This document shows positions 6,503 to 26,511 of a stretch of 27,184 nucleotides of DNA, in pieces. Made by a program: the position numbers and the translations under genes. The notes under the pieces were generated by a model, which saw only the letters and a list, made by a program, of their open reading frames with translations, ran no database searches and was not told where the DNA came from. The number at the start of each line of letters is the position of its first letter. Positions within the stretch are counted from its first letter, which is position 1. The stretch lies in the NCBI GenBank assembly GCA_964465455.1, contig CAYXJM010000001.1, positions 1 through 27,184 of the forward strand, written 5' to 3'. The stretch is from an uncultured Klebsiella sp. (lineage in GTDB: Bacteria > Pseudomonadota > Gammaproteobacteria > Pseudomonadales > UBA5518).

Positions 6503-6954
6503 CGCAGGATCCTCGTCGTCGTTTCGGTCACCACGGGCTCGCCGCGCTCGTTCTCGACCGTCATCACGATCTCGTAGAAGATCAGCGGTCCGGAGGATCC
6601 TTCCTTCTGCCAGATGTTCGTCAGCGTGCGGCTGGCGAGCAGCACGTCTCCGGGACGTATCGTGCGGTGATAGGCGATCTTCAACCCACCCGCCATCGCG
6701 CGCTTCAGGGGAAATTCGGGCAGCAGCGCGTCGATCGCCACGCCGTCGGGGCTCAGCTGCTCCGGTTCCGGCACGGGCCAGAACAGCGCGAGGTAGAACA
6801 TCGGCGGCGCCTCGTCGCCGTCGAGGTACTTGCGCAGCCGCTGCCCGGTGGCGATCGCGTACTTGCGGATGTCCTTGCGCGTCACCAGTTCGAGCTGCGG
6901 CGGCGCCTTGCGCCCGATGTTGGCCAGCAGTTCCGGCGTCAGCAGGCTGCCCAT
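6499..6954 (-). CDS. MaoC dehydratase N-terminal-half (FAS1-like dehydratase) protein (151 aa)
   Basis: ELVTRKDIRKYAIATG...EAPPMFY...LSPDG...LLPEFPLKRAMAGG...IRPGDVL...KEGSSGPLIF matches the pattern of the MaoC_dehydrat_N / N-terminal hot-dog half. Confidence 0.8.
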   Translation of the reverse strand: MGSLLTPELLANIGRKAPPQLELVTRKDIRKYAIATGQRLRKYLDGDEAPPMFYLALFWPVPEPEQLSPDGVAIDALLPEFPLKRAMAGGLKIAYHRTIRPGDVLLASRTLTNIWQKEGSSGPLIFYEIVMTVENERGEPVVTETTTRILR

Positions 6955-6957
6955 CGT

Positions 6958-8499
6958 TCACTCCCCTGCATACAGCTTGCGCAGTTCGCGCTTGAGAATC
7001 TTGCCGGTCGGCGCCTTGGGCAGGCTGTCGACGAACGCAACCGACTTCGGCTTCTGGTACGACGCGAGGTGCCGGCGCGCCTCGTCGATGATCTCGCGCT
7101 CGCTCGCGTGCATCCCCGGCTTCAGCACCACCACGGCCTTCACGACCTCGCCCCATTCGGCGTCGGGAATGCCGATCACCGCGCACTCCAGCACGGCGGG
7201 GTGGCGATGGATCGCGTTCTCGACCTGTGTCGAGTAGATGTTCTCGCCGCCGGAGATGATCATGTCCTTGGCGCGATCCACGATGTAGACGTAGCCCGAC
7301 TCGTCCCACGTCGCGATGTCGCCGGTCCACATCCAGCCGTCGCGGATCGTCTGGGCCGTGAGGTCGGGACGGCGCCAGTAGCCGAGCATGTTCGCGTCCG
7401 AGCGCACGATGATCTCGCCGGAGCTCTGCCCGTCCCGCGATACCGGCCGGCCACCCGGGTCGACCACGCGCACGCTGGTCACGAATCCCTCGCGACCGCA
7501 GCTGCGCAGCCGCTCGGGGCGGATGCCGCGCACGGCCTCGGCGTGATCCTCCTGCGACAGGAACGTCATGGTCATGCCCTCGGTCTGCCCGTAGCCCTGG
7601 ATCAGCGTGCAGGGAAACATCTCCAGCGCGGATTTCACCACCGAGACCGGCATAGGCCCGCCGCCATACTGGATGTTGCGCAGGCTGCGCAGGTCGAAGG
7701 ACCCGAAGTTTTCCACCGCCATCATCCAGTTCAGCATCGTGGTGATGCCGAGGAAGGCCGAGACTTGCTCCTCCTGGATCAATTCCAGCGCCTGGCGCGC
7801 CTCGAAGTTGACGAGCACCAGGGGACAGCCGTGGGCCATGTAGTTCATGGCCAGCGCGACCGGAATGTGGAACATCTGCCCGGTGAGCATGTACACGTCG
7901 GACGGCACGATGCGCTCGGCGACCGTCTGGTTCAGCATGCCCATGTAGATGCTGCGGTGCGAATGCAGCGCGCCCTTGGACTCCCCGGTGGTGCCGCCGG
8001 TGTACAGGATCAGCAGCGGATCGTCGCCGCCGACCGAGTCGCTGAGCGCCGGTTCCGCGTCGCTCGCCGCGCCGAGCAGGGCCTCGTAGCTGCCGTCGGA
8101 TGCGGCGCCGAACTCGAACCAGTGCGGCAGGTCCAGCTCGCGCTGCAGCGCCTCGCGCTCGGCACGGAAATCGGCCGAGGACAGCAGCGCCGCCGGCTCT
8201 CCCTCGCGCAGGATGCGGGCCATCTCCGGCACGGCGAGGCGCCAGTTCAGCGGTTGCGCCACCAGTCCCGCGCGGCCGCAGGCGTAGAACAGCTCCAGGT
8301 ACTCGATGCAGTTCTTCGCCAGGATGGCGATGCGCGCACCGCGACCGACACCGGGCAGCGCGCTGAGCCCGTTGGCCAGGCGCCGCACCCGCGCGTCGAG
8401 TTCGCCGAACCCGATGCGGCGCCCGTTGGGCACGTCGATGATCGCCGTGCGACCCGGTGCGAGCGCGGCGTGCTTGGCGGGTATCTGGCCGATGTTCAT
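6958..8499 (-). CDS. Acyl-CoA synthetase / AMP-binding ligase (513 aa)
   Basis: Adenylation motifs ILYTGGTTGESKGA, QGYGQTEG, WMWTGD, DRAKDMIISGGENIYSTQVE and LPKAPTGKILK. Confidence 0.95.
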   Translation of the reverse strand: MNIGQIPAKHAALAPGRTAIIDVPNGRRIGFGELDARVRRLANGLSALPGVGRGARIAILAKNCIEYLELFYACGRAGLVAQPLNWRLAVPEMARILREGEPAALLSSADFRAEREALQRELDLPHWFEFGAASDGSYEALLGAASDAEPALSDSVGGDDPLLILYTGGTTGESKGALHSHRSIYMGMLNQTVAERIVPSDVYMLTGQMFHIPVALAMNYMAHGCPLVLVNFEARQALELIQEEQVSAFLGITTMLNWMMAVENFGSFDLRSLRNIQYGGGPMPVSVVKSALEMFPCTLIQGYGQTEGMTMTFLSQEDHAEAVRGIRPERLRSCGREGFVTSVRVVDPGGRPVSRDGQSSGEIIVRSDANMLGYWRRPDLTAQTIRDGWMWTGDIATWDESGYVYIVDRAKDMIISGGENIYSTQVENAIHRHPAVLECAVIGIPDAEWGEVVKAVVVLKPGMHASEREIIDEARRHLASYQKPKSVAFVDSLPKAPTGKILKRELRKLYAGE

Positions 8500-11827: not shown

Positions 11828-11860
11828 TTGCATTATGCAAATCTCTTGAATATTATTCAA
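11828..11860. promoter_or_regulatory. Overlapping divergent sigma70-type promoters with operator palindrome TTGAATA-T-TATTCAA (11846-11860)
   Basis: Plus strand: TTGCAT(11828-33)-N17-TATTAT(11851-56). Minus strand: TTGAAT(11860-55)-N17-CATAAT(11837-32). Lies between the divergent SDR genes. Confidence 0.7.
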
Positions 11861-12058
11861 TACGCCGCGCGGGTCGGCGTCAAGCACCGCCACATAACAG
11901 CGCCTGACGCGCCGCCCCCCGCTCCGGAACCACTGCTGCCCGGCGCCATGCGAACGCGAAACGCGTTCCCGGCAGCGCGACTGCCGCGCGCCAGCGCGAA
12001 GCGCTCGCGCCGGGCGCGCCGGTCCGACCCCTCAAACGCTTCGACCCGGAGAATCTCG

Positions 12059-12979
12059 ATGAGCAAGAGCAGACTGCTGGATGGAAAGGTGATCGTGGTA
12101 ACCGGCGCAGGCCGCGGCATCGGCCGGGCCATCGCACTGCAACTCGCCGATTGCGGCGCGCACGTCGTCGTCAACGACCTCGGCACCAGCAGCGACGGCC
12201 AGGGCAACGACAGCCAGCCCGCCTCCGAGGTCGTCGCCGAGATCAGGGCCGCGGGCGCGCAGGCCGTTGCCAGCTGCGACAGCGTGGCCGAGTGGGACGG
12301 GGCGCACCGGATCATCCAGACGGCGGTTGACACCTTCGGGCGCATCGACGGCGTCGTGAACAATGCCGGGATCGTGCGCGACGCGATCTTCCACAAGGCG
12401 ACCGAGGAGGATTTCGACCTCGTGATCAAGGTCAACCTCAAGGGCGCCTTCAACATGAGCCGCGCCTGCGCGCCGCATTTCCGCGAGCAGCAGGGCGGCT
12501 GCCTCGTGCACATGACCTCGACGTCCGGCCTCATCGGCAACATGGGGCAGGCCAACTACATGGCGGCGAAGCTGGGCGTCGTGGGGCTGTCGAAGAGCAT
12601 CGCGCTCGACATGGCGCGGTTCAACGTGCGCTCCAACTGCATCTCGCCGTTCGCCTGGAGCCGGCTGTTCGGCTCGGTGCCCGACGAGACGCCGGAGCAG
12701 AAGGCGCGGCTCGAGAAGATCAAGCAGATGACGCCGGACAAGATCGCGCCGCTCGCCGCGGCGTTGTTCTCCGACGCCGCGCGCGAGGTGACGGGCCAGA
12801 TCTTCGCGGTGCGCAACAACGAGATCTTCCTGATGAGCCAGTCACGCCCGATCCGCGCGGCCCACACCGCGGACGGCTGGACGCCCGAAACCGTCACGCA
12901 GCGCGTGTTCCCTGCCTTCAAGCCCTCGATGTACCCGCTGGACCGCACCGCCGACGTGTTCACCTGGGATCCCGTCTGA
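12059..12979 (+). CDS. SDR of the MFE-2/HSD17B4 type, putative (3R)-hydroxyacyl-CoA dehydrogenase (306 aa)
   Basis: Start re-assigned to ATG 12059 (MSKSRLLDGKVIVVTGAGRGIG) with GGAG RBS. VVVNDLG, NNAGIVRD, TSTSGLIGNMGQANYMAAKLG and NVRSNCISP are characteristic of the MFE-2-like SDR subgroup. Confidence 0.88.
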   Translation: MSKSRLLDGKVIVVTGAGRGIGRAIALQLADCGAHVVVNDLGTSSDGQGNDSQPASEVVAEIRAAGAQAVASCDSVAEWDGAHRIIQTAVDTFGRIDGVVNNAGIVRDAIFHKATEEDFDLVIKVNLKGAFNMSRACAPHFREQQGGCLVHMTSTSGLIGNMGQANYMAAKLGVVGLSKSIALDMARFNVRSNCISPFAWSRLFGSVPDETPEQKARLEKIKQMTPDKIAPLAAALFSDAAREVTGQIFAVRNNEIFLMSQSRPIRAAHTADGWTPETVTQRVFPAFKPSMYPLDRTADVFTWDPV

Positions 12980-13000
12980 AGCGACATGGAGGCAGCAGCG

Positions 13001-13855
13001 GTGGCTTTCGATCACAAGACGATACTCGACTGGCGCTTCCCCCCGGTGCGCAACGCCTATGCGCAGCGCGACGTCATGCTCTACGCCCTGGGACTGGGGC
13101 TGGGGTTCCGGCCCACCGATCCCGCCGAGCTGCGCTACGTCTACGAAGACGGCCTCGAGGTGTTCCCGACCATGCCGGTCGTGCTGGGCCACCCCGGGCC
13201 CTGGATGCGCGATCCCGCCACCGGCATCGACTTCGTCCGGGTGCTGCACGCAGAGCAGCACCTCGAGATCCATCGGCCCTTGCCGACCGAAGGCGGCACG
13301 GTCGCGCACAACCGCGTGCTCGACGTGATCGACAAGGGTCCCGGCAAGGGCGTGCTGATCGTGATGGAGCGGCTGCTCCACGACGAGGCGAGCGGCGAGC
13401 TGCTCTGCACGCAGCGGTCGGTAGCGATCGCGCGCGGCAACGGCGGCGCCGGCGGCACGGGCAACCTCTCCCCGGCTCCCCACCCGCTGCCCGGTCGCGA
13501 GCCCGACGGCCACGTGGACATCCGCACCGCGACCCAGGCGGCGCTGCTGTACCGCCTCAGCGGCGACTACAACCCGGTCCACGCGGACCCCGCGGTAGCC
13601 GCTCGGGCCGGATTCAGCGCGCCGATCCTGCACGGACTGGCGAGTTTCGGGGTCGCGGCACGCGCCGTGCTGCAGGCCTTCGACGCCGCGCCAGGCGTGC
13701 TGCGCAGCTTCGGCGTGCGCTTCTCGGCGCCGGTCTATCCCGGCGAGACTATCAGGACCGAGTTCTGGCGCGACGCCGACGTGGTCTCGTTCCGCTCGCG
13801 GGTGCTCGAACGCGACGCCATCGTGCTGAACAACGGTCGCGCCGTGCTCGGTTGA
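13001..13855 (+). CDS. Enoyl-CoA hydratase 2 (R-specific, double hot-dog MaoC; about 284 aa)
   Basis: Likely GTG start at 13001, with GGAGG 8 nt upstream (alternative ATG 12986). Contains DVMLYALGLG, VLHAEQHL and the hydratase-2 motif LYRLSGDYNPVHADP...PILHGL, then VRFSAPVYPGET. Confidence 0.9.
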   Translation: MAFDHKTILDWRFPPVRNAYAQRDVMLYALGLGLGFRPTDPAELRYVYEDGLEVFPTMPVVLGHPGPWMRDPATGIDFVRVLHAEQHLEIHRPLPTEGGTVAHNRVLDVIDKGPGKGVLIVMERLLHDEASGELLCTQRSVAIARGNGGAGGTGNLSPAPHPLPGREPDGHVDIRTATQAALLYRLSGDYNPVHADPAVAARAGFSAPILHGLASFGVAARAVLQAFDAAPGVLRSFGVRFSAPVYPGETIRTEFWRDADVVSFRSRVLERDAIVLNNGRAVLG

Positions 13856-20771: not shown

Positions 20772-21566
20772 TCAGCGGCCCATGAACGCCTGCAGCGCCG
20801 CCGCGTGCTGCTCGCTGGTGTGGCACAGGCTCTGCTGGCTGGCGCAGTAGTCGAGGAAATCGCCGAGCTCGAGGCGCTGCCCGGCCCACAGCAACCGCTT
20901 GGCGATGCGCAGCGCCTCGCGCGGCTTGCCGGCGAACTGCGCCGCCAGCTCGTGCGCCCGCGCGAGCAGGCCCTCCGGCTCCACCGTTTCCATGAACAGC
21001 CCGAGCGCCAGCGCCTCCGCGGCCGACACGATGCGGCCGGAGAACATCAGCTCGGCGGCGCGCTGGATTCCGATCAGCCGCGGCAGGAACCACGCGCCGC
21101 CGTCGCCGGGAATGATGCCGAGGTTCACGAAGGTCGAGCCGACTTTCGCCTGCGTCGAGCCGATACGGATGTCGCACATGCAGCACAGGTCCAGGCCGGC
21201 GCCGATCGCCGGTCCGTTCACGGCCGCTATGGCGGGCACCTCGAGGCGGTACATCGCGAGCGTCATCCGCTGGATGCCGCGCCGGTAGCCGTCCTGCACC
21301 TCGATCGGCGTGCCACCGAACATGCCGCGGCGCTCGCGCATCTCGGCGACGTTGCCGCCGGAGGAAAAGGCCTTGCCTGCCCCCGTCAGCACCAGCGCTC
21401 CGACCGCGTGGTTGCGGTTGATCCAGTCGCAGGTGTTCACGATGTCCGCTATCAGGTGCGTGCCCGTGAGCGCGTTGCGCAGGTCGTCGCGCGCGAGCAC
21501 GAGGGTCGCGACCCCGGCGTCGTCGAGCGAGAGTCGCGCATCCCCGAGTTCCGGCATCGCAATCAT
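20772..21566 (-). CDS. Crotonase / enoyl-CoA hydratase-isomerase superfamily protein (264 aa)
   Basis: Start ATG 21566 after GAGGGGG. Oxyanion-hole motifs FSSGGNV and AAVNGPAIGAGLD, then LGIIPGDGGAWFLPRLIG. Confidence 0.9.
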   Translation of the reverse strand: MIAMPELGDARLSLDDAGVATLVLARDDLRNALTGTHLIADIVNTCDWINRNHAVGALVLTGAGKAFSSGGNVAEMRERRGMFGGTPIEVQDGYRRGIQRMTLAMYRLEVPAIAAVNGPAIGAGLDLCCMCDIRIGSTQAKVGSTFVNLGIIPGDGGAWFLPRLIGIQRAAELMFSGRIVSAAEALALGLFMETVEPEGLLARAHELAAQFAGKPREALRIAKRLLWAGQRLELGDFLDYCASQQSLCHTSEQHAAALQAFMGR

Positions 21567-21580
21567 CGCTGTTTCCCCCC

Positions 21581-22609
21581 TCAGCCGGTTATCCTGGGCC
21601 ACAACGCCCCCGCGCCGGCGCGCGCCACCTCGCGCCCGAGCCGGCCCGCCCAGTAGCGGTCGTTGCCGAATTCCGAGCGCCACGCCCACAAGCGCTGCGT
21701 GAAGTGGTGCAGGGCATGCTCGCGCGTGAAGCCGATGGCACCGTGCAACTGGTGCGCGATCGACGTCGCCTGGTGCACCGCACGGTTGGCGCGCAGCTTC
21801 GCGCAGGCAATCGCGAGTTCCGTATCGCCCGCGGTGTCCAGCGAGAGGCAGGCCGCACCCGCGGCGCAGGACACCGCCGCCGTCTCCTCGGCCAGCAGCG
21901 CCAGCTGGTGCTGGATGACCTGGAACTTCGCCAGCGCGCGGCCGAACTGCACGCGATCGTTCGCGTGCGCGGTCGTCAGCGCGAGCGCGCCGGCCAGCGC
22001 GCCGCCCGCCTGCGTGGCCCGCAGCAGCGCGCCGCGCATCAGCAGCGTGTCGCAGGCGTTTTCGCGGCGGCACGACGCGACCAGCGCCGACCCGTCGAGC
22101 TCGAGGTCGGCGCGGGCTTCCGCGCCCACGCCATCACGGCGCCGGCAGTGTCGCGCGGCGCTGCTGTCGTAAAGCGCGAGGTACTCGGCGCCTTCGTGCG
22201 CGAACGCGGTGAGCACGCAGGCCTCGCCGCTGCCCCACGGGACGTTGCGCAGTTCGACGCGCAGCCCCGAGCCCTGCGCCTGCACCGCGCTGCAGCCGGC
22301 CAGGGTGATCGGCGCCTCGGGCACCGCGATGCCCGTGTCCTGCAGCAGCTGTCGCGCCAGCATCGTCTCGGCCACCGGCAGCGCGAGGGCGTGTTCTCCG
22401 GCGGCGTGCATCAGGATGCGCGCGTCCTGCCAGCTCCCCCCGAAGCCGCCCGCCCCCTCGGGCAGCAGCAGGTCGCACAGCGCGAGCTCGCGGACCCGCT
22501 CCCAGCCGGCGCCGAAATCGGGGCGTGCCCCGTGGCCCCGCTCGTGCGCCGCCAGGTCGGGAAACAGTCGCTCGATCGTGTCGGTCAGCATCCGCTGCTG
22601 TTCGTTCAT
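21581..22609 (-). CDS. Acyl-CoA dehydrogenase, short non-catalytic-type subunit (342 aa)
   Basis: DRVQFGRALAKFQVIQH and AHQLHGAIGFTREH; shortened N-terminal/middle region; ATGA overlap with the upstream ACAD. Confidence 0.88.
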   Translation of the reverse strand: MNEQQRMLTDTIERLFPDLAAHERGHGARPDFGAGWERVRELALCDLLLPEGAGGFGGSWQDARILMHAAGEHALALPVAETMLARQLLQDTGIAVPEAPITLAGCSAVQAQGSGLRVELRNVPWGSGEACVLTAFAHEGAEYLALYDSSAARHCRRRDGVGAEARADLELDGSALVASCRRENACDTLLMRGALLRATQAGGALAGALALTTAHANDRVQFGRALAKFQVIQHQLALLAEETAAVSCAAGAACLSLDTAGDTELAIACAKLRANRAVHQATSIAHQLHGAIGFTREHALHHFTQRLWAWRSEFGNDRYWAGRLGREVARAGAGALWPRITG

Positions 22610-23754
22610 CGCAGTCCGAGCCCCTTGGCAATGATGCCGCGCAGGATTTCACGCGTGCCGCCGCGCAGCGAGAAGGAAGGCGACGCGCGCAGCAGGTAGT
22701 CGAGCGCGTCCTGCAGCGCCCCGTCTCCGGCGGCCGCGAGCTCCGGATCGATCGCGGCCTGCACCAGCGGCGGGATGTCCTGTTCGAAGCGCGCGCCGAG
22801 GTCCTTCACGATCGCCGCCTCCAGCGCGGGCAGCGCGCCCCGCGCCAGCTGCCCGGTCACCGAGAGCGACATCTGGCGCAGCGTCCAGAGCTCCGCCGTC
22901 AGCGTGCCGATCAGCGCGGCGATCTCGGGCTCGGGTGCGGGGCCGACCGCCGCGACGAGCTCCTCGAGCAGGCGATAGCTGCTCAGGTAACGCTCCGGCC
23001 CGCTGCGCTCGAGCGCGAGCTCGGCGTTGACCTGTGCCCAGCCCTCGCCTTCGGTGCCGAGCAGCATTTCCTCCGGCACGAAGACATCGTTGAAGAACAC
23101 CTCGCCGAAATGCGCGGCACCGGTGTGATCGACCACGGGGCGCACGGTGACGCCCGGGCTCGCCAGTTCGACGATGAACTGGCTGAGCCCCGCGTGCCGG
23201 CTGTCCTCCTCGCGGCTCGTGCGCACGAGGGCGATCATCAGCTGCGCCCTGTCCGCGTTCGTGGTCCAGAGCTTCGAGCCGTTGATCTTCCATCCGCCCT
23301 CGACGCGCGTCGCGCGCGTGCGGATCGACGCGAGGTCGGAACCGGAGTTGGGCTCGCTCATGCCGATGCAGCAGAACAACTCGCCGCGCGTCATCGCGGG
23401 CAGGTAGCGCCGGCGCACCTCCTCGCGGGCGTAGCGCAGCAACAGCGCCCCGCTCTGGCGGTCGGCGATCCAGTGCGCCGCCACCGGGGCGCCCGCCGCC
23501 AGCAGTTCCTCGAGCAGCACGTAGCGCTCCAGCACGCCGCGCTCCTGGCCGCCGTATTCGCGCGGCCACGTCATCCCGATCCAGCCCCGTTCACCGAGCT
23601 TCCGGCTGAACTCCGCATCGAACCCGGTCCACGTCTGCGCCTTCTGCCGCGCGCCCAGTCCCGCCAGTTCCTCGCGCAGGAAGGCGCGGACCTCCTGCCG
23701 CAGGGCCGCCGTTTCGGGCGGCAGTTCGAGCGCTTCGAAATTGATGATGTTCAC
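22606..23754 (-). CDS. Acyl-CoA dehydrogenase, catalytic-type subunit (382 aa)
   Basis: GWIGMTWPREYGG, CIGMSEPNSGSDLAS, INGSKLWTT, FGEVFFNDVFVP, candidate catalytic Glu in LALERS, and C-terminal SLRGGTREIL. Confidence 0.92.
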   Translation of the reverse strand: MNIINFEALELPPETAALRQEVRAFLREELAGLGARQKAQTWTGFDAEFSRKLGERGWIGMTWPREYGGQERGVLERYVLLEELLAAGAPVAAHWIADRQSGALLLRYAREEVRRRYLPAMTRGELFCCIGMSEPNSGSDLASIRTRATRVEGGWKINGSKLWTTNADRAQLMIALVRTSREEDSRHAGLSQFIVELASPGVTVRPVVDHTGAAHFGEVFFNDVFVPEEMLLGTEGEGWAQVNAELALERSGPERYLSSYRLLEELVAAVGPAPEPEIAALIGTLTAELWTLRQMSLSVTGQLARGALPALEAAIVKDLGARFEQDIPPLVQAAIDPELAAAGDGALQDALDYLLRASPSFSLRGGTREILRGIIAKGLGLR

Positions 23755-23762
23755 GGTGGTCC

Positions 23763-24974
23763 TCAGCGGTCCAGGTCGTGGCGGCCGATGATCGCCACGC
23801 TGCAGACATTACGGTTGGGGAATCCTCCCAGATTGTGCGTGAGCCCCAGCCGCGGCGCGGGAAGCTGGCGCTCGCCGGCGCGCCCGTGGATCTGCAGGTA
23901 GATCTCGTAGACCATGCGCAGGCCCGAGGCCCCGAGCGGGTGTCCGAAGCACTTCAGCCCGCCGTCGACGTTGCAGGGCACTTTCCCGCCGCGGTCGAAC
24001 TTGCCGTCGAGCACGTCCCGCCAGCCGTGGCCGACCTCCGAGAGGCCGAGATCCTCCATCGTGATCAGTTCCGTGATCGAGAAGCAGTCGTGCACCTCGA
24101 CGAGGTCCAGTTCCTCGACGGGGTCCGCGATGCCGGCCTCGCGGTAGGCGCGTCCGGAGGCCAGTCGCGCGGTCACCGCGTGGCTGCCGTCCCAGGTGTC
24201 GTGGAACATTTCCGCGCCGTTGCTCAGCGCGAGCTGCATCGCCTTGACCGTGACCAGGTCCTCACCCTTGCCGAGGCGGCGGGCGATCTCGGGGGTGGTA
24301 ACGATCGCGCAGGCCGCTCCGTCGCTCACGCCGCAGCAGTCGAAGAGCCCGAGCGGCCAGGCTATCATCGGCGCCTTCAGCATCTTCTCCTTCGGCACGC
24401 GGCTGCGCAGGTGCGCCTTCGGGTTGAGCGCGCCGTTCTCGTGGCTCTTCCACGACACGTGCGCCATCGCGTCCTTCAGGGTCTCGAGCGGCACACCGTG
24501 GTTGTGCGCGTAGGCGATGCACATCTGCGCAAAGGAGCCCGGCGCGGTCACGCCCGGCAGCCACAGGTCCTCGAAGGTGCCCATCGGGCGCGGCGGCAGG
24601 CCGCCGAAGCCGGTGTCCTTCAGCTTCTCCACGCCCATCGCGAGCGCGATGTCGCAGGCACCGGCGGCCACCGCGTAGACCGCGCCGCGCAGCGCCTCGG
24701 ATCCGGTCGCGCACAGGTTCTCCACCCGCGTCACCGGCACGTTGGCGAGCCGCAGGGTCTGCGACAGCGAGAGCGCCGATTTGCTGAGGCTGTGCTCGTC
24801 GTAGCACAGCCCGAGCCACGCCGCCTCGATCTGCGGCGTCTCGATGCCGGCATCGGCGAGGCACTCGGTATAGGCCTCGAGGATCAGGTCGTCCGCGCCG
24901 CAGTCCCAGCGTTCGCCGAAGCGGCTGCAGCCCATGCCGATGATCGCCACCTTGTCCTTGATGCCCGTTGCCAT
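23763..24974 (-). CDS. SCP2/SCP-x-type thiolase (403 aa)
   Basis: ENLC88ATG nucleophile loop, EVHDCF (SCP2-type), GGLKCFGHPLGASG and CCGVSDGAAC. Confidence 0.9.
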   Translation of the reverse strand: MATGIKDKVAIIGMGCSRFGERWDCGADDLILEAYTECLADAGIETPQIEAAWLGLCYDEHSLSKSALSLSQTLRLANVPVTRVENLCATGSEALRGAVYAVAAGACDIALAMGVEKLKDTGFGGLPPRPMGTFEDLWLPGVTAPGSFAQMCIAYAHNHGVPLETLKDAMAHVSWKSHENGALNPKAHLRSRVPKEKMLKAPMIAWPLGLFDCCGVSDGAACAIVTTPEIARRLGKGEDLVTVKAMQLALSNGAEMFHDTWDGSHAVTARLASGRAYREAGIADPVEELDLVEVHDCFSITELITMEDLGLSEVGHGWRDVLDGKFDRGGKVPCNVDGGLKCFGHPLGASGLRMVYEIYLQIHGRAGERQLPAPRLGLTHNLGGFPNRNVCSVAIIGRHDLDR

Positions 24975-25001
24975 GCTGCTGTCCTTCTCTCGCGAAACGC
25001 C

Positions 25002-26453
25002 TCAGGCCACACCCGGAACCGGCGCCGCCTTCCAGAAATAGCGGTGGAACCCGCGCAGGCTGTCGAAGTCCTTGATGCGGAACTCCATGCGCACCGGCGT
25101 CCCGATCGCGATTTCACCCGGGGCGAAGCCCGTGAACTCCATCATCAGAACCGCCTTGTCGGCGAAGCGCACGTTGCCGTACATCAGCGGCGGATTGCGC
25201 GACAGCGCGAGCCAGTCCTCGGTGAAGGACTTCACCTCGCCGATCTTCTCCCGCAGCGGCTCGGCGACCTGCGTGGCGGCGCGGTTGCAGGCGGGATTGA
25301 CGCAGTAGCGGGTCTTCGGGAACTGCAGCGTGTCGCAGGCCGTGCAGCGCCCGCCGACGAAGGCGGTGATCGCCTCGCGCGCGCGGAAGTGCGCCGATTG
25401 CGCCGTGCGCGTGTCGCGCTCCTCGCGCATGCCGAGATCCAGGTCGAGCAGGCGGTTGAAGGCCAGGTAGCGCAGGTAGTTGTCGTCCGCCCGGCCCTGC
25501 TGCAGCGCCGCCCCGACGCCGTGGAAGTCGCGCACTTCGGCGATGCGCCCGGTCGTCTCGAACAGCAGCGCGTCGCAGCCCTGCCCGAACCCGAGCAGCA
25601 GGATCCGCTCCCCCGGCGCCGCCGCCTCCAGCGCGGCGCAGAGCATCAGCAGCGGGTAGGCGCAGCCGCTGTAGCCGCACTTCTCGATCAGACCCGGCTG
25701 CACCGCGCTCTCGGCTATGCCGCAGGCCTTCGCCACCGCCCTGGCCGCGCCGTCCTGCAGGCCGCCGAGCACGAAGCGGTCGATCTGCGCGGGCGCGACA
25801 CCGGTCTTGCCGAGCAAGCCCGCCACGGCCCGGGGCACGATCTTCAGATAGCCCTCCTCGCGGACCCAGCGCTCCTCGAGCACGTAGTCGTAACGGGCCT
25901 GCGCTCCGCGGTAGTGATCGACCAGATCGCAGGCCACCGAGTGCGAACCGACGAAGCGCGCGAGGACGTCCTCGCTGCCGAGCAGCAGCGCCGCCGCGCC
26001 GTCGCCTGCCAGCATTTCCATCGTGCTGCCGGGCTTGGAGAGCGGCCGGTCGGCGCCGAGCACCAGCGCGGGGCCTTCGCTGCGCAGGCCGTGGATCAGC
26101 GCGCCGGTCGCGGCGCGCTGCGAACCGCCAGTGTCCACGGCGTGCAGGTCGCCCCCGAGTCCGAGCGCTTCGGCGACGACGCCGGCGTTCTGGCGGTCGA
26201 GGAAAGGCAGCGTGGTCGAGGCGAGCAGCAGTTCGCCGACGGCCCTGCGCGGCGGCAGGTGACGCAGCGCGGCCCGCGCCGCCGCGACCGCCATCGTGAT
26301 GCTGTCCTCGTCGAAACTGCCGTAGGCGCGCGCTCCCTTCGCCATGGCCGCGAGATTGGGAAAGGCCCACGCGTGGGCCTGTGCGATCGCCGTGCGTGCC
26401 AGCCGCAGCCGCGGCAGGTACGCCCCGAACGCCGAAATGCCGGTTTCCGCCAC
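25002..26453 (-). CDS. HMG-CoA-synthase/KAS-III-like fold fused to C-terminal DUF35 (Zn-ribbon + OB fold); catalytic Cys absent (483 aa)
   Basis: GTG start with GAAGGAG RBS. N-terminal GISAFGAYLPRLRL...DEDSITMAV, GDGAAALLLG and GFGQG. C-terminal GGRCTAC...CVNPAC Zn ribbon and OB-fold G.VKSFT...PVRMEFR. Confidence 0.85.
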   Translation of the reverse strand: MAETGISAFGAYLPRLRLARTAIAQAHAWAFPNLAAMAKGARAYGSFDEDSITMAVAAARAALRHLPPRRAVGELLLASTTLPFLDRQNAGVVAEALGLGGDLHAVDTGGSQRAATGALIHGLRSEGPALVLGADRPLSKPGSTMEMLAGDGAAALLLGSEDVLARFVGSHSVACDLVDHYRGAQARYDYVLEERWVREEGYLKIVPRAVAGLLGKTGVAPAQIDRFVLGGLQDGAARAVAKACGIAESAVQPGLIEKCGYSGCAYPLLMLCAALEAAAPGERILLLGFGQGCDALLFETTGRIAEVRDFHGVGAALQQGRADDNYLRYLAFNRLLDLDLGMREERDTRTAQSAHFRAREAITAFVGGRCTACDTLQFPKTRYCVNPACNRAATQVAEPLREKIGEVKSFTEDWLALSRNPPLMYGNVRFADKAVLMMEFTGFAPGEIAIGTPVRMEFRIKDFDSLRGFHRYFWKAAPVPGVA

Positions 26454-26492
26454 CTGAACACTCCTTCCCGCAGCAGCGCTGCCGCGACACTC

Positions 26493-26511
26493 ATTTGAAT
26501 ACTATTCAAAT
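26493..26511. promoter_or_regulatory. Perfect 19-bp palindrome ATTTGAATA-C-TATTCAAAT (operator)
   Basis: Perfect inverted repeat in the divergent intergenic region between the HMGS-DUF35 gene and the SnoaL gene. Confidence 0.8.

Follow-up and report, generated by a model that had tools for sequence, protein, structure and literature searches.

The HMGS-like::DUF35 fusion and its thiolase partner

An operon on the minus strand of the window (the whole 27,184-nt stretch of DNA that was analysed) begins with two genes, one encoding an HMG-CoA synthase (HMGS)-like domain fused to a DUF35 module (P0001) and the other an SCP2-type thiolase (P0002). The features of the pair are as follows, with codons checked for the tetrad replacements.

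26495..26509, no strand: palindrome TTGAATA-C-TATTCAA, candidate operator, ~40 nt upstream of the operon start
26461..26468, minus: ribosome-binding site GGAAGGAG, 7 nt upstream of the GTG start
25002..26453, minus: gene for the HMGS-like::DUF35 fusion P0001, 483 aa; GTG start at 26453, stop at 25002-25004
25455..26453, minus: HMGS/PhlA-like thiolase-fold domain, aa 1-333, without the Glu-Cys-His-Asn tetrad (alignments to 6esq_I and 5m3k_A)
26214-26216, 26118-26120, 25764-25766 and 25671-25673, minus: Thr80, Gln112, Gly230 and Tyr261, the tetrad replacements
25005..25361, minus: DUF35 module, aa 365-483, zinc ribbon plus OB fold (Pfam and PDB matches)
25287-25346, minus: zinc ribbon CTAC...CVNPAC (C370/C373/C384/C389), cysteines invariant in 77 sequences
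23763..24974, minus: gene for the SCP2-type thiolase P0002, 403 aa, 27 nt downstream of the fusion gene
24711-24713, 24081-24092 and 23937-23945, minus: Cys88, HDCF (295-298) and GHP (344-346) of P0002

Both open reading frames lie where the original prediction had placed them, with a third-position GC bias typical of real genes (GC3 0.90 for the fusion and 0.93 for the thiolase). The genes are co-directional, separated by a spacer of 27 nt, and each is preceded by a ribosome-binding site. We rejected a longer P0001 N-terminus, as found in 493-aa database variants, because there is no in-frame start from the upstream stop to the GTG at 26453, where a strong ribosome-binding site is present.

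P0001 was expected to have an HMGS-like fold with a dismantled active site, and alignments to archaeal HMGS (6esq_I) and PhlA (5m3k_A) bear this out, with four of four tetrad positions replaced. In the HMMER alignments, Thr80 stands at the catalytic Glu (ASTTLP versus GSESHP), Gln112 at the catalytic Cys (GGSQRAAT versus FACKAGT) and Gly230 at the catalytic His (FVLGG versus VFHQP), while Tyr261 occupies the Asn position. Residues 3-333 match the archaeal-type HMG-CoA synthase model NF003274 at 173.6 bits, under its cutoff of 244. Against the other NCBIfam archaeal-type HMGS model, TIGR00748, P0001 scores 125.2 bits, under the cutoff of 353. The best sequence match of this domain is PhlA (116 bits, 1.8e-32), versus 88 bits for archaeal HMGS. 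A single confident AlphaFold2 model (pLDDT 91, pTM 0.93) has archaeal HMGS, PhlA and MucA as its top structural matches in Foldseek, with a TM score of 0.87 to 6esq.

The predicted fusion to DUF35 is also present: Pfam, NCBIfam and PDB matches place both halves in one polypeptide. The zinc ribbon is matched by zf-ChsH2 at 365-389 and the OB fold by OB_ChsH2_C at 405-459 (PF12172, 25.4 bits; PF01796, 24.2 bits, slightly short of the gathering cutoff of 27.1 for this OB-fold score). The best PDB matches of residues 335-483 are PhlB at the top, archaeal DUF35 and ChsH2-DUF35, all with weak E-values (0.025-0.12).

P0002 retains the thiolase motifs that had been read from it: Cys88 (in NLCATGS), HDCF and GHP. 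Its score against NCBIfam PRK06157 is 663.7 bits, and its best solved relative is archaeal ACAT (190 bits, 8e-55), versus 61-69 bits for PhlC and 54 bits for Ltp2 (6ok1_A). Homology of the pair to both the PhlA/PhlB/PhlC and the archaeal thiolase/HMGS/DUF35 assemblies, as originally proposed, is thus supported by the sequence matches.

Conservation of the pair across bacteria

We found more than 3,500 fused homologues. Synteny was followed at 80 loci, taken from genomes of Alpha-, Beta- and Gammaproteobacteria, Desulfobacterales, Acidobacteriota and Chloroflexota, 7 of which were cut too short to show the thiolase position. In 70 of the remaining 73, the fusion gene is followed on the same strand by a thiolase gene whose product is 60-77% identical to P0002, usually after a gap of 15-120 nt; the exceptions are L050, L059 and L070. 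Among the 45 loci of at least 15 kb, 44 contain the thiolase partner. The adjacency of fusion and thiolase is a conserved family trait and not chance. Genes for ACAD (acyl-CoA dehydrogenase), ECH (enoyl-CoA hydratase), SDR or MaoC proteins lie within 10 kb in 39 of the 45 large loci. These neighbourhood counts come from family-level tblastn and Pfam on representatives; crude clustering of open reading frames was dropped, as it was spoiled by the long antisense frames typical of high-GC DNA.

The tetrad is missing in every one of 77 family members. The former Glu site is always Thr, whereas the former Cys site holds Gln (41 sequences), Leu (32) or Met (4) and never Cys. There are 31 invariant columns, and most invariant residues of P0001 are common to true HMGS and PhlA; judged by these alignments, the shared residues are fold or interface residues. 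Thr80 (77/77) and His180 (75/77), which map to the former HMGS active site or its vicinity, are family-specific invariants that a pure scaffold would not need. In the partner thiolases, by comparison, the catalytic motifs are intact, with Cys and HDCF in 70/70 and GHP in 68/68.

Comparison with an 82% ortholog gave dN/dS values of 0.09 (thiolase), 0.13 (DUF35) and 0.21 (HMGS-like part), so the dead HMGS-like domain is under purifying selection. A pseudogene or decaying domain is ruled out by this ratio of 0.21 together with the 31 invariant columns over 77 sequences. The family also includes Desulfobacterales orthologs that carry an extra covalent fusion, to an MFE-2-type SDR plus SCP2 domain, and a full-length fusion, 53% identical, in the estrogen degrader Croceicoccus estronivorus. 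An exact-sequence lookup with the latter homologue gave no match.

A beta-oxidation operon in a catabolic island

The operon runs HMGS-DUF35, thiolase, ACAD-alpha, ACAD-beta, ECH, and the last three genes are as follows.

22606..23754, minus: acyl-CoA dehydrogenase, alpha-type subunit, 382 aa (Pfam); starts 8 nt past the thiolase gene
21581..22609, minus: acyl-CoA dehydrogenase, beta-type subunit, 342 aa (Pfam); 4-nt overlap with the alpha gene
20772..21566, minus: enoyl-CoA hydratase of the crotonase family (Pfam ECH_1), last gene of the operon

These neighbours agree with the earlier placement of the pair in beta-oxidation and not in isoprenoid synthesis. The best PDB matches of ACAD-alpha are Tcur3483 (6wy9/6wy8) and ChsE4 (4x28); ACAD-beta, in which the C-terminal ACAD domain alone is recognisable, best matches Tcur3481 (6wy8_A). 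The best solved relatives of both subunits are heteromeric steroid ACADs. The hydratase probably starts at the ATG at 21566, after a ribosome-binding site, rather than at the start of the 433-aa frame, since the ECH_1 match begins at residue 186 of that frame. The palindrome upstream of the operon occurs in 3 copies in the window and in none of 100 shuffles.

The catabolic island in the window also holds a Rieske oxygenase and SnoaL-like proteins, and ~10 kb from the pair there are an SDR, 43% identical to the SDR of the Desulfobacterales fusions, and an MFE-2-type hydratase. The gene for the window's MFE-2-type SDR spans 11828-12979. Domain searches of the window genes showed catabolic functions only, with no PKS or NRPS domains.

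A probable degradative thiolase with a putative scaffold subunit

We consider it likely that the two proteins make up a degradative 3-ketoacyl-CoA thiolase of ACAT/HMGS-DUF35 type, which has two subunits, one of them a non-catalytic scaffold, and works within a beta-oxidation operon. The scaffold would be P0001, which probably has this role, and the homologues and synteny suggest that P0001 and P0002 form a complex. In such a complex, Cys88 of P0002 would attack the 3-keto carbon and hold the acyl-thioester, while HDCF and GHP would provide the acid/base and oxyanion/activating histidines, as in other SCP2-type thiolases. P0001 probably arose from an archaeal-type HMG-CoA synthase through loss of the tetrad and fusion to DUF35. 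By analogy with the solved archaeal, PhlACB and MucABC assemblies, P0001 would dock on the thiolase through its zinc-ribbon/OB module. Its dead HMGS-like domain would form a dimer, maintain the solubility of the thiolase and, at the interface, complete the chamber that binds CoA. The complex would carry out the last, thiolytic step of the beta-oxidation cycle, with substrate import and activation by other island genes. The steroid-type alpha/beta ACAD pair and the enoyl-CoA hydratase in the operon point to a bulky, branched or alicyclic (steroid-like) acyl-CoA as the probable substrate. Acetoacetyl-CoA is the sole published substrate for the fused architecture (PMC12960953), so the idea of a bulky substrate is drawn entirely from the neighbouring genes.

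The closest functional precedent comes from Liao et al. (Nat Commun 2026), in which the Pseudomonas fluorescens complex PfACAT/HMGS-DUF35 cleaved acetoacetyl-CoA thiolytically, made neither acetoacetyl- nor HMG-CoA, and lost its activity upon an H294Y change (PMC12960953). By its published description, it resembles the pair here in having two genes, a tetrad-less HMGS-like domain fused to DUF35, a thiolase with Cys, HDxF (His294 there, His295 here) and GHx, and no PKS or NRPS neighbours. The same study counted ~1,000 "minimal" bacterial HMGS-ACAT-DUF35 loci and viewed PfACAT/HMGS-DUF35 as an evolutionary intermediate recruited to no pathway (PMC12960953). The fused two-gene form is thus widespread and already characterised, which removes the novelty that the original prediction had implied: the HMGS-DUF35 plus thiolase design is neither rare nor new, and the pair here is an ordinary example. 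However, this pair and most of its relatives are embedded in beta-oxidation operons, and in contrast to the published view of a leftover without a pathway, the neighbourhood data speak for a working role of these complexes as beta-oxidation thiolases. Our literature search for other functional studies of fused-type complexes yielded PMC12960953 and PMC7793797 only. The latter describes the estrogen (edc) cluster of N. tardaugens, where, by description, a thiolase (EGO55_13550) and an adjacent atypical "HMG-CoA synthase" without an assigned role (EGO55_13555) likewise sit among steroid-catabolic beta-oxidation genes (PMC7793797). Besides N. tardaugens, N. pentaromativorans US6-1 (JI59_RS20825/20820) is a candidate cultivated carrier of such a gene pair.

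Other DUF35-containing systems suggest other reactions. The archaeal thiolase/HMGS/DUF35 complex has the same three modules, and it provides the best solved relative of the thiolase and the best structural match of the HMGS-like domain; its HMGS is catalytic, its role anabolic and its DUF35 separate, whereas P0001 has no tetrad and carries DUF35 as a fused module. A biosynthetic complex that makes acetoacetyl-CoA or HMG-CoA by condensation for entry to the mevalonate pathway would fit the database names of the homologues ("hydroxymethylglutaryl-CoA synthase" and "acetyl-CoA acetyltransferase"), but we give this reading almost no credence. The missing tetrad effectively refutes it, P0001 scores under the NCBIfam HMGS cutoffs, the neighbours are catabolic, and the assayed homologue did not condense (PMC12960953). 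The original prediction had also allowed for C-acyl transfer, as in the Friedel-Crafts acyltransferases PhlACB (P. protegens, 5M3K/5MG5) and MucABC (S. macacae, 9VBO/9VBT). As an acyltransferase or deacylase of this kind, the pair would use the thiolase Cys to deliver an acyl group to a catabolic intermediate, or to remove one from it, at an aromatic or enolic carbon. The two known systems have an identical tripartite domain set, PhlA is tetrad-less and closer to the HMGS-like domain than archaeal HMGS is, the C-terminal module matches PhlB best, and the island has ring-modifying enzymes, namely the Rieske oxygenase and SnoaL-like proteins. Yet PhlACB and MucABC consist of three separate subunits, are encoded beside type III PKS or NRPS-PKS genes, of which the window has none, and perform aryl or enol C-acetylation instead of thiolysis. 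PhlC and MucB are defined by the loss of HDxF and have remodelled pockets, and the assayed fused-type complex thiolysed where the acyltransferases did not (PMC12960953). Because P0002 and all 70 partner thiolases retain HDCF, and P0002 scores far better against archaeal ACAT than against PhlC, we regard acyl transfer by this pair as very unlikely, while the other half of the claim, C-C cleavage, agrees in its thiolytic form with the assays of the same architecture.

DUF35 docking is also a hallmark of ChsH2-Ltp2 and Shy-Sal (PMC12329534), which, with the steroid-like context, might point to a retro-aldolase that cleaves a steroid side chain from a 3-hydroxyacyl-CoA. ChsH2-Ltp2 (6OK1), Shy-Sal and the benzoylsuccinyl-CoA thiolase BbsAB (7PXP) do share a DUF35-docked SCP2-type thiolase fold and a role in the catabolism of bulky CoA esters, and BbsB uses HDxF as P0002 does. 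In these systems, however, there is no HMGS-like module, and DUF35 is standalone or fused to a MaoC hydratase. Ltp2 and Sal are aldolases not known to have an N-terminal nucleophilic Cys, unlike P0002 with its Cys88, and the match of Ltp2 to P0002 is just 54 bits. The CtSal motif is YDCY and not the HDCF of P0002 (PMC12329534). A retro-aldolase here seems highly improbable.

The HMGS-like domain itself might not be inert, and could have acquired another role in catalysis or in holding the substrate, such as bulky acyl binding or a decarboxylase or hydrolase step, that would make the pair bifunctional. Its purifying selection speaks for this, as do the invariant Thr80 and nearly invariant His180 at former active-site positions beside a variable Cys position. 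There is also a precedent in KS-Q domains, where Gln at the ketosynthase Cys position gives decarboxylase activity. A KS-Q-type decarboxylase is nevertheless out: the mix of Gln, Leu and Met at this site means that Gln is not required, and the His and Asn partners for such a decarboxylation are gone as well. Most of the invariant residues are explicable by fold or interface, and the equally tetrad-less PhlA and MucA have no known catalytic role (PMC12960953). On balance, we think an active HMGS-like domain improbable.

Returning to the degradative thiolase with a scaffold, we can tentatively extend this reading. P0001 might serve as docking platform in a bacterial counterpart to peroxisomal MFE-2/SCPx, physically linking the thiolase with an (R)-specific 3-hydroxyacyl-CoA dehydrogenase and channelling bulky or branched (steroid-like) 3-ketoacyl-CoA, with Thr80 and His180 holding the CoA arm or acyl moiety. 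The SDR plus SCP2 fusions in Desulfobacterales and the SDR and MFE-2-type hydratase of the window support such a platform, which we see as a possible, though rather doubtful, arrangement.

The value of these results lies in annotation and pathway reconstruction. Members of this family are usually named "HMG-CoA synthase", "3-oxoacyl-ACP synthase III C-terminal domain protein" or "OB-fold protein", and such names wrongly imply mevalonate or fatty-acid synthesis inside catabolic islands; the "HMG-CoA synthase" of the N. tardaugens estrogen cluster is an example of this puzzling naming (PMC7793797). The genome studied here has a second, paralogous set of fusion, thiolase and ECH genes.

Gene organisation of the fusion protein and its thiolase

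Two consecutive minus-strand genes, picked out by third-position GC in a window of ~69% GC, encode a protein with an HMG-CoA synthase (HMGS)-like domain fused to DUF35 (P0001) and an SCP2-type thiolase (P0002). The spacer between them is 27 nt, and a purine-rich ribosome-binding site precedes each gene. They belong to a tight five-gene operon in the order HMGS-DUF35, thiolase, acyl-CoA dehydrogenase (ACAD) alpha, ACAD beta and enoyl-CoA hydratase (ECH).

Operon genes and P0001 domains
25002-26453, minus strand, HMGS-like::DUF35 fusion (P0001, 483 aa)
P0001 residues 365-389, ChsH2-type zinc ribbon, part of DUF35
P0001 residues 405-459, OB fold, part of DUF35
23763-24974, minus strand, SCP2-type thiolase (P0002, 403 aa)
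21581-23754, minus strand, alpha/beta ACAD pair, ACAD beta reduced to a C-terminal ACAD domain
20772-22073, minus strand, ECH ORF of 433 aa, sharing ~490 nt with the ACAD beta gene

The two ACAD genes overlap by 4 nt. The ECH domain of the 433-aa ORF begins only at residue 186, and an ATG at 21566 with a ribosome-binding site, right after the ACAD stop, gives a normal-sized hydratase of 264 aa.

The archaeal-type HMG-CoA synthase model NF003274 matches P0001 over residues 3-333 with 173.6 bits (cutoff, 244). In HMMER alignments to solved structures, Thr80, Gln112 and Gly230 fall at the catalytic Glu, nucleophilic Cys and catalytic His sites of the archaeal HMGS 6esq_I, and Tyr261 occupies the Asn position of the E-C-H-N tetrad. 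The best PDB match is PhlA (1.8e-32), which likewise lacks the HMGS catalytic residues; its 116 bits with the HMGS-like domain somewhat exceed the 88 bits of archaeal HMGS. With the C-terminal 149 residues alone, the top three matches are PhlB, an archaeal DUF35 protein and ChsH2-DUF35, at weak E-values (0.025-0.12). An AlphaFold2 model of P0001 from 77 homologues (pLDDT 91, pTM 0.93) has archaeal HMGS (TM 0.87), PhlA-type proteins and MucA as structural neighbours. NCBIfam PRK06157 matches P0002 over its full length (663.7 bits), and the thiolase retains Cys88, HDCF at 295-298 and GHP at 344-346. The original prediction had described an inactive HMGS-like part fused to DUF35, a thiolase with its catalytic residues in place, homology of the pair to PhlA/PhlB/PhlC and to the archaeal HMGS/thiolase/DUF35 proteins, and a beta-oxidation operon; gene coordinates, domains and motifs all proved correct, and the prediction was also right on homology, loss of activity, gene fusion and catabolic setting.

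Distribution and conservation

The fused family is large: a word-indexed search found 3,529 proteins of similar length matching P0001 at E < 1e-5, under names as varied as "HMG-CoA synthase," [quoted passage not shown] and "OB-fold domain-containing protein," and scanning a single genome from each species confirmed the fused architecture in at least 559 loci. For synteny we used the best 80 of these, which come from Alpha-, Beta- and Gammaproteobacteria, Desulfobacterales, Vicinamibacterales, Chloroflexota and SAR324. Downstream sequence was too short to judge in 7 of the 80; among the other 73, a same-strand thiolase 60-77% identical to P0002 lies 3' of the fusion gene in 70, usually at a spacing of 15-120 nt; three loci (L050, L059 and L070) depart from this arrangement. 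The pair is kept in 44 of 45 loci of at least 15 kb, and no other window gene is so conserved. Across 77 family members, Cys never occupies the nucleophile site, which holds Gln (41), Leu (32) or Met (4); the Glu site is always Thr, and all four zinc-ribbon cysteines are invariant. In the partner thiolases, Cys88 and HDCF (70/70) and GHP (68/68) are invariant too.

The fused module is patchily distributed, being present in 3 of 200 other families sampled within the same class and in 6 of 15 further genomes from its genus, with megaplasmid copies in Sphingobium, Novosphingobium, Azoarcus, Variovorax and Rhodococcus. The window's own genome assembly (91% complete, 735 contigs), which the names of near-identical database proteins place in Gammaproteobacteria and probably in Steroidobacteraceae, carries a second fusion, thiolase and ECH set on another contig (L085), its paralogous fusion (G000:C270:2899-4281) 33% and its thiolase 42% identical to the window pair. 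One same-genus ortholog (82-85% identity; G207:C24:331395-332841) is in two pieces, with a break at residue 305 that may reflect a frameshift or faulty assembly. In the 82% relative L081, a stand-alone classical DUF35 (138 aa) and thiolase (389 aa) lie at 6850-8435, with the fused-type pair ~1.5 kb downstream, and thus both DUF35 designs occur in one island.

Characterised complexes and the role of the inactive domain

In a survey of 1,030 bacterial loci where HMGS, thiolase subunit (ACAT) and DUF35 genes lie together, Liao et al. (Nat Commun 2026, PMC12960953) found that 1,001 lack biosynthetic neighbours, and they assayed one of that kind, PfACAT/HMGS-DUF35 of P. fluorescens. This complex combines a fused HMGS-DUF35 lacking E-C-H-N with an ACAT bearing Cys, HDxF and GHx, features that the window pair shares. 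From acetyl-CoA it made no acetoacetyl-CoA and no HMG-CoA; it did cleave acetoacetyl-CoA by thiolysis, an activity that H294Y in HDxF almost eliminated (PMC12960953). What defines the Friedel-Crafts acylases PhlACB and MucABC is a thiolase-like subunit that has lost HDxF (PMC12960953), whereas P0002 has HDCF. By these published motif criteria, the window pair groups with the P. fluorescens complex and not with PhlACB; bit scores agree, P0002 scoring highest against archaeal ACAT (190 bits) and far lower against PhlC (61-69 bits). Of the two activities first proposed, thiolytic cleavage as in P. fluorescens is the likely one; it was wrong to rank aryl C-acyl transfer beside it, since P0002 keeps HDCF. 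The novelty implied at that stage was overestimated, since this architecture occurs widely and a 2026 study had already characterised it (PMC12960953).

dN/dS against the 82% identical ortholog
HMGS-like domain, 0.21
DUF35, 0.13
Thiolase, 0.09
ACAD alpha, 0.16
ACAD beta, 0.31

The value for the HMGS-like domain indicates that it is maintained by selection. Most of its invariant residues (P14, R17, D48-E49-D50, D107, E146 and R182) are common to true HMGS and PhlA, which fits a role in fold and interface. The thiolase-like subunits of the archaeal and streptococcal complexes are insoluble or inactive on their own, and a CoA chamber lies where HMGS and thiolase meet (PMC12960953). By analogy, the economical reading is that the dead domain would serve as a scaffold that completes the pocket. 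A scaffold role alone would not call for the invariance of Thr80 (77/77) or the near-invariance of His180 (75/77; archaeal HMGS has Phe there), family-specific residues at or near an old active site whose Cys position varies. These residues would suit a domain that has retained or gained a function of its own, which we consider improbable.

Catabolic setting and possible regulation

Among solved structures, Tcur3483 and Tcur3481 come closest to the ACAD subunits, with ChsE4 (4x28) likewise among the best PDB matches of ACAD alpha. These are reportedly heteromeric ACADs of actinobacterial steroid catabolism, from Sampson-laboratory work, and the window subunits point to bulky CoA esters as the probable substrate type.

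Other features of the window
Island genes: TonB-dependent receptors, CoA ligase, Rieske oxygenase, KstD-like flavoprotein, SnoaL-like proteins, amidohydrolase, two SDRs, MFE-2-type hydratase
11828-13855, plus strand, SDR and MFE-2-type (R)-hydratase (PF22622 + MaoC) pair
2694-2708, palindrome copy upstream of a TonB-dependent receptor gene
11846-11860, palindrome copy in the divergent SDR/SDR intergenic region
26495-26509, palindrome copy ~40 nt upstream of the HMGS-DUF35 operon

This gene content suits an island for the catabolism of a hydrophobic compound, probably an alicyclic or steroid-like one. Among large loci, 39 of 45 have ACAD, ECH, SDR or MaoC genes no more than 10 kb away. The P0001 ortholog is extended in frame in six Desulfobacterales-type loci: L075:9995-12727 encodes a 910-aa four-module protein (dead HMGS-like, DUF35, MFE-2-type SDR and SCP2), fusions of ~910 aa also occur in L032, L048 and L065, and L053 and L060 have shorter forms. 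In L075 a hydratase-2/SDR/SCP2 protein comes before the four-module fusion and the thiolase after it. The window's 383-aa SDR ORF is 43% identical to the SDR module fused in L075, and its SDR/hydratase pair, ~10 kb from the SCP2-type thiolase gene, consists of homologues of both catalytic halves of peroxisomal multifunctional enzyme 2. Such gene fusions tie the putative scaffold to the final two steps of what would be an (R)-specific, peroxisome-like beta-oxidation. Given this link, the published description of ACAT/HMGS-DUF35-type complexes as "not yet recruited into a defined pathway" (PMC12960953) looks too pessimistic. The estrogen cluster of N. tardaugens contains an unexplained "HMG-CoA synthase" adjoining a thiolase (PMC7793797), which, judged from the description, may be another example of the module.

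The palindrome TTGAATA-N-TATTCAA occurs three times in the window, one copy with 1 mismatch, and in none of 100 shuffles. Its presence at three sites suggests one repressor for the whole island, with the palindrome as candidate operator. In L081 a TetR gene adjoins the SnoaL_2 gene.
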